Shown in pieces: positions 21,560 to 24,985 of a DNA stretch of 32,000 bases. The stretch covers positions 270,001-302,000 of the forward strand of contig JAUWGH010000001.1 of the NCBI GenBank assembly GCA_030606485.1, written 5' to 3'. Position numbers and translations under genes: made by a program. Each line of letters opens with the position of its first letter. The first letter of the stretch is position 1. The stretch is from Promethearchaeota archaeon. Its GTDB lineage: Archaea; Asgardarchaeota; Lokiarchaeia; Sigyniarchaeales; SOKP01. The notes under the pieces were generated by a model, which saw nothing but the letters and a program-made list of their open reading frames with translations, made no database searches and was not told the origin of the DNA.

Positions 21560-22810
21560 TTGGAAGTAAATCCATTTGAAAACGCAAAAAAACAACTTGC
21601 TCTCGTTGCTGAAAAAATGGGCTTAAATCCCGATATTCATAAGTTTTTACAAAGTGTAGAACGTTCTTTGATTGTTAAAATACCTATTGTTATGGATGAT
21701 GGTCATCTTGAAATTTTCGAAGGATATCGTGTTCAACATAGCTTGGTTCGTGGTCCTGGTAAGGGTGGTGTTCGATTTAATCCTCAAGTAACTCTCGATG
21801 AGGTAAAAGCTTTAGCCATGTGGATGACTTGGAAGTGTTCATTACATAATCTCCCACTTGGGGGAGCTAAGGGTGGAGTTTGTTGTGATCCGAAGAAATT
21901 ATCGAAAAGAGAAATTGAGAGGATAACCAGACGATATACAGCTGAAATTATTAGTATCATTGGTCCAGATAAAGATATACCAGCACCAGATGTCGGCACA
22001 GGTGGAGAACATATGGCTTGGATGATGGATGTATATTCGATGCAGCATGGAAAAACAGTTCCTGGCGTTGTAACGGGAAAACCAATCGAGATTGGAGGCT
22101 CCCCGGGAAGAAGTGGAGCGACAGGTACGGGATTGTTTTTTGTAATTGAAAGAGCTTGTGAAAAGATGAATATAGACCTAAATGGTTTAACTGTAACCAT
22201 CCAGGGATATGGAAAAGTTGGTAAGAAGATTGTTAAACTGTTATCTAAACGAGGTTGTAAAATTTTAGCCGTTACTGATTCACGTGGTGGGGTTTATTCT
22301 GAGAATGGCTTAGATGTTGATAAATTATTGGAATGGAAGGAACAGGGAAATTCTGTTAGAGATTTTAAAGGTGACTCTTTAAAGCAAATTACAAATGAAG
22401 AAATATACACAATTAAATGTGATTTAATAATTCCTGCAGCTATGGAAAACCAGGTAACAGAGAAGAACGCTGACCAAATAGATTGCAAAATAATTGCAGA
22501 AGGGGCAAATGGTCCGATCACTCTAGAAGCAGACAAAATCTTAGAAAAGAAAGGTATAGTTGTCCTTCCAGATATTCTTGCTAACGGAGGAGGTGTGATC
22601 GTTAGTTATTTTGAATACGTTCAAGACATAAATGCTTATTATTGGGATTTGGAGAGAGTGAATAAGGAACTAAAGAAAATTATTCTTGATGCATTTGAAA
22701 ATGTATATAGTATTGTTAAAGAAAAAAATATCTCTTACAGACTAGCAGCATATATGATTGCCGTCTCAAGAGTTGCGAGGGCAATTGAATTACGGGGAAT
22801 TTTTCCTTAA
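21560..22810 (+). CDS. gdhA: Glutamate dehydrogenase (Glu/Leu/Phe/Val dehydrogenase family)
   Basis: GYRVQHS, KGGVRF, GGAKGG, DIPAPD, VVTGKP, QGYGKVG, EGANGP and PDILANGGG. TTG start 5 nt after AAGTGAT. Confidence 0.96.
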   Translation: MEVNPFENAKKQLALVAEKMGLNPDIHKFLQSVERSLIVKIPIVMDDGHLEIFEGYRVQHSLVRGPGKGGVRFNPQVTLDEVKALAMWMTWKCSLHNLPLGGAKGGVCCDPKKLSKREIERITRRYTAEIISIIGPDKDIPAPDVGTGGEHMAWMMDVYSMQHGKTVPGVVTGKPIEIGGSPGRSGATGTGLFFVIERACEKMNIDLNGLTVTIQGYGKVGKKIVKLLSKRGCKILAVTDSRGGVYSENGLDVDKLLEWKEQGNSVRDFKGDSLKQITNEEIYTIKCDLIIPAAMENQVTEKNADQIDCKIIAEGANGPITLEADKILEKKGIVVLPDILANGGGVIVSYFEYVQDINAYYWDLERVNKELKKIILDAFENVYSIVKEKNISYRLAAYMIAVSRVARAIELRGIFP

Positions 22811-22906: not shown

Positions 22907-22912
22907 AAAAAA
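22907..22912 (-). terminator. T6 tract, probable terminator of the 5S precursor
   Basis: Minus-strand TTTTTT lies just past the trailer stem of the permuted 5S gene. Confidence 0.45.
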
Positions 22913-22923
22913 TAGAATGCAAA

Positions 22924-23069
22924 TCGCACTAAATTTCTGAGTTCGGAAAGGGATCAGGTTTTTCCAACATCCTATGACCGTTAACGAATTAACAGTTTAC
23001 AGTTTCCCAATAATCGCAATATCAGTACTATCTGTAACGATATGTTGTTTAACTTCCAGTCTAGTGCGA
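22924..23069 (-). other. Bulge-helix-bulge-like processing stem enclosing the permuted 5S
   Basis: Leader TCGCACTAGA (23069-23060) pairs with trailer TTTAGTGCGA (22933-22924) over 10 bp, one of them G-U. Central 4-bp helix CTGG/TCAG. 3-nt bulges AAG (23055-23053) and AAA (22936-22934). Confidence 0.85.
22935..23053 (-). rRNA. rrf: 5S rRNA gene, circularly permuted (3' half 23053-22989, TTCG linker 22988-22985, 5' half 22984-22935)
   Basis: Reordered halves give a complete 5S. Helix I: TTAACGGT/ACTGTTAA. Helix II: GGATGTTG/CAACATATC with a bulged A. Helix III and loop C: AACCTGA-TCCCTTTCCGAAC-TCAG AA GTT. Loop E: AGTA/GAA. Loop D: GCGA. Helix V: GTTACAG/CTGTAAAC. 115 nt plus the 4-nt linker. 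Confidence 0.93.
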
Positions 23070-23097
23070 AGTGCTATAAATTAATAATAAACCCTTT

Positions 23098-23105
23098 TAT
23101 TTTAA
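23098..23105 (-). promoter_or_regulatory. Candidate TATA box for the 5S precursor
   Basis: Minus-strand TTAAAATA preceded by purine-rich AAAAGTAAAA (BRE-like), 24-31 nt upstream of where the leader stem begins (about 23074). The AT-rich background makes this weak. Confidence 0.4.
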
Positions 23106-24004: not shown

Positions 24005-24532
24005 ATACCTAAAAAGTTCATTATGAAAATCTTGACTGCCGGAGAGGGCGGAGTAGGAAAAACAACACTTTTACGCCGTTTTGTTGAAGGACAATTCTTC
24101 TCAGAGACTAAAATGACTATTGGGGTTGAATTTTTCCTGAAATCTATTGTTTTAGGAGACAATGAGATTACACTTCAACTCTGGGATTTTGGTGGGCAAG
24201 AACGTTTTAGGTTTTTACTTGGAAGTTATGTTTTAGGGGCTAAAGGAGCATTTCTAATGTTTGATCTTACAAGAATAGCAACATTAGAAAAACTTGAACA
24301 ATGGGTTCAAATTGTGCGCCAAAACGACCCTAATTTACCTGTTTTATTTCTTGGGACTAAAATTGATTTAATAGAAGATATAAATGTGAATGATGACTTT
24401 GCTTTATCATATCTCGAACCCTTAAATTTATTTGATTATCTCAAGATATCATCAAAAACTGGTGAAAATGTTGAGGAATCCTTTAAACGCTTAACTCAAG
24501 AAATATTAGAACGTCAAGGTATTCAAATATAA
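24005..24532 (+). CDS. Rab-like small GTPase (Ras superfamily)
   Basis: G1 GEGGVGKTT, G2 TIGVEF, G3 WDFGGQERF, G4 GTKID, G5 SSKTG. No CAAX. ATG at 24023, or ATA at 24005 behind GGTGG. Confidence 0.95.
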   Translation: MPKKFIMKILTAGEGGVGKTTLLRRFVEGQFFSETKMTIGVEFFLKSIVLGDNEITLQLWDFGGQERFRFLLGSYVLGAKGAFLMFDLTRIATLEKLEQWVQIVRQNDPNLPVLFLGTKIDLIEDINVNDDFALSYLEPLNLFDYLKISSKTGENVEESFKRLTQEILERQGIQI

Positions 24533-24985
24533 ATGTTTTCTTATTTTAATGATTTAAAAGATCATCAGCTTATCATTTTGGATGCGAATTTTATATTAAT
24601 CCCATCTCAGTTTGGGATCGATTATTTTGAAGAAATTAGAGAGATCATCCCGGGGAAATTGGCTTATATAGTTTTTAAATCCACTTTAGATGAATTAAAT
24701 TGGAAAAAAATAAGGGAAAATAAAAAAATCAAATATCGGAAACAGTTAGAATTAGGCTTACAAATTTTAACATCTCATAAATTCTATGAGATCCCAATAG
24801 AGAGGGAAAATAATGAAACCGTGGATGATTTTTTGATTAAAGCATGTCAAAAATTATTAAATAATAATTTCAAAGTTCATTTGGCAACAAATGATTCCAG
24901 ACTTCGGTCAAGGGCAATGAAATTGGGAATAAGTGTTATATATCTAAGACAAAAAAAGAAAATTGTTTCTGATCGATTCGATTAG
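24533..24985 (+). CDS. PIN-domain protein, Fcf1/Utp24-like (COG1412 type)
   Basis: ILDANF, LDEL, VDDFL, LATNDSRLR and VIYLRQKK. ATG directly follows the GTPase stop. Confidence 0.85.
   Translation: MFSYFNDLKDHQLIILDANFILIPSQFGIDYFEEIREIIPGKLAYIVFKSTLDELNWKKIRENKKIKYRKQLELGLQILTSHKFYEIPIERENNETVDDFLIKACQKLLNNNFKVHLATNDSRLRSRAMKLGISVIYLRQKKKIVSDRFD

Follow-up and report, generated by a model that had tools for sequence, protein, structure and literature searches.

How does an archaeon make its 5S ribosomal RNA (rRNA) when the only 5S-like sequence in its genome has its parts in the wrong order? The question is raised by a locus in a 32,000-nt stretch of DNA from a Promethearchaeota archaeon (class Lokiarchaeia; assembly GCA_030606485.1, contig JAUWGH010000001.1, positions 270,001 to 302,000). 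This stretch is called the window here; all positions are numbered within it, and the 5S feature reads on the minus strand (23069-22924 with its flanking motif, read directly from the sequence). The gene for 5S rRNA, a universal RNA, is usually one of the easiest to identify. At the gathering threshold, Rfam gives no match in the window. With permissive settings, the locus reaches 28.9 bits with the Rfam 5S model (RF00001), whose threshold is 38, and the proper alignment is confined to the 5' part. Such a sub-threshold score is expected because the gene is permuted. A search of the organism's own genome (a 3.75-Mb, 100%-complete assembly) finds this as the sole 5S-like locus. Our answer, to which we give a probability of about 0.7, is that the locus is the functional 5S rRNA gene of the organism, encoded in permuted order and matured through cutting by the splicing endonuclease EndA and joining by the ligase RtcB into a 119-nt ring.

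The circularly permuted body, which is the predicted 119-nt ligated product, runs from 23053 down to 22935 (minus strand). The 3' two-thirds of 5S comes first (GUUAAAC..., the 3' strand of helix II, helix V, loop E, and helix IV). It is followed by the helix I hairpin and then by the 5' third (GGUCAUAGG... to ...CCGAACUCAGAA). Helix I (22996-22977, minus strand) is closed by a UUCG tetraloop (22988-22985) in both RNAfold and RNAalifold structures, and this cap links the positions that form the 3' and 5' termini in a conventional 5S rRNA. When the product is joined at the predicted junction and opened at the tetraloop, the rotated 119-nt sequence can be aligned over its full length with 12 canonical 5S genes from a sister family, f2. 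The predicted junction ...CCGAACUCAGAA|GUUAAAC... is free of indels against these genes, and the colinearity with bona fide 5S includes loop C, the AA bulge of helix III, and loop E. The original prediction had claimed that the cut rule of the endonuclease regenerates a colinear 5S with no base gained or lost, and this alignment bears it out. The ligated junction string itself, CCGAACTCAGAA|GTTAAACAAC, does not occur in the genome. Metagenomes were scanned for a string expected in this family only after ligation (loop C plus junction); the scan returned 40 DNA contigs, all of them canonical 5S genes of other archaea and bacteria, with no RNA-derived contig among them, the string being too unspecific. 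A single search of sequencing runs gave no RNA run with the locus; its four matches (share 0.45) are metagenome DNA contigs of a related strain, which carry the leader variants found in genome G001 and no joints.

The flanks of the body form a bulge-helix-bulge (BHB)-like motif. In the outer helix the leader strand UCGCACUAGA (23069-23060, minus strand) forms ten pairs with the trailer strand UUUAGUGCGA (22933-22924), two of which, at the inner end, are G-U or A-U; the pairing is found by RNAfold, by RNAalifold, and by covariation. The central helix has four pairs, one of them G-U, between CUGG (23059-23056), which mimics the 5' strand of 5S helix III, and UCAG (22940-22937), which in the mature fold is the 3' strand of helix III. 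On each strand a 3-nt bulge sits 3' of the central helix: AAG (23055-23053) on the 5' side and AAA (22936-22934) on the 3' side. EndA cleaves after the second base of a bulge, and this rule predicts cuts at 23054/23053, which makes G23053 the first base of the 5S piece, and at 22935/22934. The leader/trailer helix and the 3-nt 3' bulge are present in both the minimum free energy and the centroid structures of RNAfold, and RNAalifold gives the same 3' bulge. The fold energy of the precursor is ordinary (z = -1.6). The motif is present as originally described, both when read directly and in RNAfold.

Further evidence for the motif comes from relatives. The loci of 14 relatives were aligned with MAFFT and folded with RNAalifold, which recovered the 3-nt bulge unprompted, along with both the outer and the 4-bp helix. 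At each of the five proximal outer pairs, 5-7 of the 14 sequences have changed on both sides. When the motif alone is counted, 79.8% of the cells pair, compared with 35-39% when the partner strand is slid by 1-3 columns, and none of 500 shuffles reaches the observed covariation. The two strands of helix III also covary (CUGA/UCAG, CUGU/ACAG, CUGG/CCAG, and CCGG/CCGG). Note that in MAFFT alignment A1 the rows of the window's own genus are shifted by one column at helix III. Changes on both sides are found in all of helices I, II, IV, and V (25 of the 38 predicted pairs). By the RNAalifold fold and by the pair counts against shuffles, the stem and bulges first noticed in the window are conserved in relatives, with compensatory changes.

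Several observations weigh against maturation of 5S through this motif. The inner helix has just two or three pairs, which makes the motif non-canonical: GUU (23053-23051) faces AAC (22943-22941) with three pairs if the 5' bulge is 2 nt, and only two pairs (UU/AA) are formed if it is 3 nt. The geometry alone is expected by chance in 1.4-3% of comparable AT-rich windows. The estimate requires a 4-bp helix, a 3-nt bulge, and no fewer than 10 uninterrupted outer pairs, with partners 100-140 nt apart; of 300 shuffled versions of the region, 10 contained this arrangement, as did 6 of 414 other 301-nt AT-rich windows. The outer helix also differs among relatives. The genus of the window has one continuous 10-bp outer helix, while the proximal outer helix has 3-7 bp in the other genera of the family, and most genera have one of only 3-6 bp, then a leader hairpin, and then a longer outer stem. 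Finally, a TATA-like TTTATA lies about 24-25 nt upstream of G23053, making a leaderless start at the 5S body conceivable.

The significance of the motif lies in its placement at the 5S junction and in its covariation, rather than in geometry alone. The covariation of leader and trailer also disfavours a leaderless transcript from TTTATA. A second A/T-rich box, farther upstream of the 5S, is positioned like the TATA-like box of relatives, which is found about 26 nt upstream of the outermost stem (e.g., L184). We infer a candidate promoter from these two TATA-like boxes (23105-23092 and 23080-75, minus strand; region 23075..23105). Oligo-T ends archaeal transcription, and a T6 run at 22912-22907 (minus strand), 12 nt beyond the trailer helix, is likely to be the terminator.

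The leader of most family loci (e.g., L008, L014, L020, L184, and L134) consists of three parts: an outer stem of 8-15 bp (CCACAUAA-like, pairing with UUAUGUGG in the trailer), a hairpin UAGC-NNNN-GCUA, and the proximal helix. An unanchored BHB finder recovers the true motif in the window and in GC-rich families, and it picks the longer outer stem in most AT-rich genera. The family loci (75 in number) were parsed by anchoring on conserved 5S motifs.

How widely is 5S encoded in this way? A covariance model of the permuted gene, built from the 14 loci, matches 74 of the 81 genomes of the window's family, as well as 1/1 and 3/4 genomes in two further families of the same order. It matches none of the 14 genomes of the sister family f2, 12 of which instead have canonical 5S genes over the Rfam threshold, often in two or three tandem copies. 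Canonical 5S is matched in only two of the 81 genomes of the window's family. Both matches were rejected, since they lie directly beside bacterial 23S genes and thus belong to contaminant contigs. In other orders of the class, five of seven genomes have the permuted gene. Across the phylum the model matches 17 further families and misses nine of the 27 sampled; overall, matches are found in 23 sampled families. Canonical 5S genes are found instead in six families, namely five of the nine missed ones and f2; one of the six scores 22/23 and another 17/19. We read 25 of the distant loci. All have the same permutation, with perfect but unrelated outer helices of 9-15 bp, a 4-bp central helix, and predicted products of 120-130 nt. 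In four single-contig genomes (G101, G102, G131, and G165) the permuted locus is the only 5S-like sequence.

These counts bear on whether the locus could be a decaying relic, the real 5S gene being elsewhere or unassembled. The sub-threshold Rfam score is what a relic might give. The permuted model, however, matches most genomes of the family and also single-contig genomes, the 5S helices covary, and the family's only canonical matches adjoin bacterial 23S genes and represent contamination. We consider a relic extremely improbable.

Some observations on copy number and contamination may be added. The bacterial rRNA contigs (23S and 5S) were binned in two metagenome-assembled genomes of the family (L106 on contig 68 of G065 and L118 on contig 263 of G087). 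One of these two 23S genes has a group I intron, and a contaminant 5S gene of this kind is mistakable for an archaeal one. The tandem 5S copies of the sister family are 360-920 bp apart (e.g., L110 in G032, L108 in G048, L112 in G039, and L111 in G044). Since tandem duplication of a permuted gene recreates the canonical order, with an intron at the old junction, the canonical and often tandem genes of the sister family may represent a secondary return to linear order. This sister family is perhaps the one to which the cultured Lokiarchaeia belong. Genome G226 (family f30; L270-L272 and L221) has at least four copies of the permuted 5S gene, each at a contig end, and the gene seems to be a multi-copy repeat there that breaks the assembly.

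The position of the break is not the same in all relatives. In type A, with 54 parsed loci including that of the window, the gene is broken at ...GGAA|GUUAAAC, in the AA bulge of helix III. In type B, with 21 loci mostly from one genus and the rest from three others, the break is at ...CCGGUC|CCAUCC on the 5' side of loop C, about 15 nt earlier than in type A. One other family has a third layout, in which the break is in loop B. Every layout combines an outer helix with a 4-bp helix that is followed, on the 3' side of each strand, by a 3-nt bulge. The central helix has four pairs in 52 of the 54 type-A loci and in all 21 type-B loci (73/75). When types A and B are cut and joined by the same rule, the 54-nt stretch from CGGUCAU to GUUAAAC, in which both break sites lie, has the same length and essentially the same sequence in both products. 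Each type's DNA thus holds uninterrupted the junction that the other type must make by ligation. If the ends are rejoined, a moving break with a fixed joined sequence is to be expected; it fits poorly with a mature RNA that has free ends at the break.

Type B also informs on the cut itself. The bulges of type A are A-rich, so that the exact bond cut is ambiguous. In type B, where they read AAC and UCA, the conserved GGUCCCAU (...GGUC|CCAU...) results from cutting after the second base and from no other cut, with the predicted ligated junction ...ACCCGGTC|CCATCCGAAC.... Type-B loci have no inner flanking helix. Examples of type B are L127, L131, L016, L013, and L189 (in G053, G062, G008, G021, and G042), and the two types can occur within one family and even within one genus. 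The 5S bodies of G042 and G061 (type B) are near-identical to those of G080 and G092 (type A with an intron), and the switch of break point between these two pairs looks recent.

A skeptic might take the flanking helix for an ordinary processing stem that serves another nuclease, and its likeness to a BHB for fortuitous. In AT-rich DNA the geometry alone is indeed not very rare, and the inner helix is weak. On the other side, all break points and all families examined retain the 4-bp helix and the 3-nt bulges amid completely changed flanks, and type-B genes fix the cut at the second bulge base. We judge this explanation very improbable.

Alternatively, EndA or another nuclease might trim leader and trailer and the ends never be joined, so that the ribosome would use a permuted 5S that is linear and ends within helix III. 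Several lineages do tolerate rRNAs in fragments. Such a molecule would resemble the permuted 5S rRNAs described for mitochondria (PMC4267664), which may have a closed helix I. Its free ends would, however, fall in 4-bp and 3-bp helix segments at a universally conserved site, and the constancy of the predicted joined sequence across breaks at three places (helix III bulge, loop C, and loop B) argues for ligation. The products of EndA are natural substrates of RtcB, and the introns described next need ligation in any case. A 5S left unligated is therefore quite improbable, and the joined ring is kept as the preferred product.

Another type of interruption is found in relatives. Twenty-four loci of the family are about 150 or 181 nt long, and the extra length consists mostly of 30-nt insertions. 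They are found at three sites: one in loop C after CCGAA (L011, L019, L164, L176, L172, and L183) and two positions in helix IV (L126, L146, L199, L178, and L175). At the borders of each 30-nt insertion, insert and exon pair in a perfect helix of 4 bp, accompanied by two 3-nt bulges (mostly AA|N) and an inner hairpin of 7-9 bp, and its removal by the same cut rule restores the intron-less sequence exactly. The window's own 5S gene is without such insertions. The insertions look like BHB introns within the 5S gene. As BHB introns they imply that endonuclease and ligase must act on pre-5S RNA in those species, and judging from the sequences, cutting and ligation very probably do act on 5S RNA in the relatives with such mini-introns. 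Their near-uniform size hints at a common, possibly mobile origin.

Are the enzymes available? The original prediction invoked EndA and RtcB, and both are encoded in the organism's own genome, EndA as two PF01974 paralogs and RtcB as a single gene (579 bits). The 199-aa EndA paralog most resembles the catalytic chain from the heterotetramer of Aeropyrum pernix (3p1z_B, E = 3e-37) and retains the Tyr, His, and Lys in the alignment. The 206-aa paralog aligns to the Methanocaldococcus jannaschii enzyme with Pro in place of the catalytic His, and it looks like a structural subunit. EndA here thus looks like the two-subunit (alpha2-beta2) kind. Endonucleases of this kind accept relaxed motifs that miss one flanking helix, so the weak inner helix of the 5S motif fits such an enzyme. 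The caveat originally attached to that helix is softened by the apparent two-subunit nature of EndA: the motif is a relaxed one, but its inner side is not empty, having two or three pairs.

A second motif of this type is found in the same genome. The 23S gene (L228, on contig 6), also solitary, has a canonical hBHBh' in its flanks, with a 14-bp outer helix, an AAGC/GCUU central helix, two 3-nt bulges, and an 8-bp inner helix. This motif predicts a circular pre-23S rRNA of about 3231 nt. Processing of rRNA through BHB motifs is thus plausibly in use in the organism of the window. The match to the 16S gene stops at model position 828, at a contig end (L229).

The proposed maturation of 5S would proceed as follows. 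A short solitary transcript would start just upstream of 23069 and end at the T-run near 22907. The leader would pair with the trailer, and the leader CUGG with UCAG at the 3' end of the body, to form the BHB-like motif. EndA, with its catalytic and structural subunits, would cut two bases into each bulge (23054/23053 and 22935/22934), and RtcB would join both ends of the 5S piece, restoring the universally conserved ...CCGAACUCAGAA-GUUAAAC.... Helix III would then form as UCAG leaves the leader CUGG and pairs with CUGA in the gene itself. The product would be a 119-nt covalently closed 5S rRNA with helix I capped by UUCG. We infer leader transcription, EndA cleavage, ligation, and the presence of the ring in the ribosome from the genes; formation of the ring is probable on these grounds.

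Is the ring also the final form? Here the closed end of helix I is informative. Of 102 permuted loci, 90 cap helix I with a loop of 4 nt, which is of the UNCG kind in 56. A four-base link that is mostly UNCG suggests a cap that persists. Two relatives (L012 in G009 and L185 in G070) have a helix I hairpin about 31 nt longer, which includes a GC-rich stem. A BHB intron was considered for these insertions and rejected, as they do not fit a BHB. They may be an expansion of helix I that is retained in the product, something that only a closed helix I permits.

The ring might instead be only an intermediate, re-opened in or near the helix I tetraloop to give a linear 5S with canonical ends, as for the circular precursors of 16S and 23S rRNA and for permuted transfer RNAs (tRNAs). 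Permuted tRNA genes (e.g., in Cyanidioschyzon merolae and Thermofilum pendens) are a close parallel to the 5S gene, as they too have the 3' half before the 5' half and a BHB-like motif formed by leader and trailer. They give a circular intermediate with a spacer, at which RNase P and tRNase Z open the circle again. Archaeal circular pre-rRNAs are likewise generally thought to be re-linearised (PMC12918454). In contrast to the permuted tRNAs with their spacer, the native ends of 5S are linked by the four nucleotides of the tetraloop only, with no spacer or conserved processing motif. The UNCG loops found in 56 of the 102 loci are of the stability type, and the two relatives with a longer helix I have an extension rather than a cleavable spacer. 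Furthermore, circular 23S rRNA is reported in archaeal ribosomes (PMC12918454) and circular signal recognition particle (SRP) RNA is functional (PMC4731332). Re-opening is thus unlikely, and persistence of the closed ring as the final form of 5S is close to an even call.

The 5S unit is solitary and lies inside an intergenic gap of 348 bp, between a glutamate dehydrogenase gene ending at 22810 and a gene for a 207-aa protein called from 23159. A scan of genome contigs with this glutamate dehydrogenase gave only distant homologues, from bacteria and archaea. The rRNA genes are dispersed, with 16S, 23S, and 5S each on a separate contig of the genome. The gene content is of Asgard type (e.g., Ras-family GTPase and eIF2-gamma genes). 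In the window, a gene for a Ras-family small GTPase is followed by one with a PIN_9 domain (24023-24985), the ATG of one overlapping the stop region of the other, and this gene pair is retained in four metagenome contigs.

The nearest known system is found in Thermoproteus tenax, where SRP RNA has a permuted gene and the splicing endonuclease cuts the RNA, which is circularised and functional (Plagens et al. 2015, PMC4731332). Like the permuted 5S gene, it specifies a structural RNA that is essential and universally conserved. The SRP RNA case, demonstrated with RNA-seq and enzyme assays, comes from a single genus of Thermoproteota, whereas the Asgard case concerns 5S rRNA, covers at least 23 sampled families, has a moving break point, and is deduced from gene sequences.

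Circular precursors of 16S and 23S rRNA that depend on a BHB are also established (PMC12918454; PMC7758197), with circular 23S found in ribosomes as mentioned above. They share with the predicted 5S pathway the action of EndA and RtcB on rRNA processing stems, and the organism's own 23S gene has such a motif. Unlike the permuted 5S gene, however, the 16S and 23S genes are colinear, and circularisation is not needed to create their sequence. In the cultures studied, 5S is processed without excision and circularisation, unlike 16S and 23S (PMC12918454). 5S genes in permuted order are described for mitochondria (Valach et al. 2014, PMC4267664); these organellar genes are outside the archaeal EndA/RtcB system.

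Covalently closed RNAs derived from 5S do occur in archaea, as the predicted Asgard ring would be. Low-level circular 5S from canonical genes is reported in Halobacterium, Sulfolobus/Saccharolobus, and Pyrococcus (PMC12558985; bioRxiv 10.64898/2026.03.23.713588). Those circles are minor, have heterogeneous ends and no BHB, and are read as intermediates or decay products, while the Asgard ring would be the obligatory product of a permuted gene. A full-text literature search, in which subscription journals were thinly covered, did not turn up any archaeal 5S described as permuted or as obligatorily circular. What appears to be new is that permuted 5S genes of relatives have shifting break points with the same BHB geometry, together with apparent BHB mini-introns. 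The comparisons support a permuted RNA gene that would be matured by the tRNA-splicing machinery. What stands out is which RNA is involved, how widely the arrangement is spread in the phylum, and how mobile the break point is.

In the archaeal phylum that is closest to eukaryotes, the majority of the sampled families seem to have their 5S rRNA gene in scrambled form only. This would account for the lack of a 5S gene in standard annotations of these genomes. If the sister family with canonical genes is indeed that of the cultured Lokiarchaeia, the cultures would be the exception, which may explain why the arrangement has escaped experimental notice. Moving break points and mini-introns together are a natural experiment on how permuted RNA genes originate and shift. 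If the proposed reading is true, both would be excised spacers, interchangeable with one another, whose positions wander among helix III, loop C, loop B, and helix IV and leave the product unchanged. The enzymes of tRNA splicing would then be essential for ribosome assembly in these organisms, and a circular rRNA component is predicted in their ribosome. Tentatively, it may even be that in most Asgard archaea the ribosomal 5S is a closed ring without ends, made by the tRNA-splicing machinery from a gene that is topologically circular.
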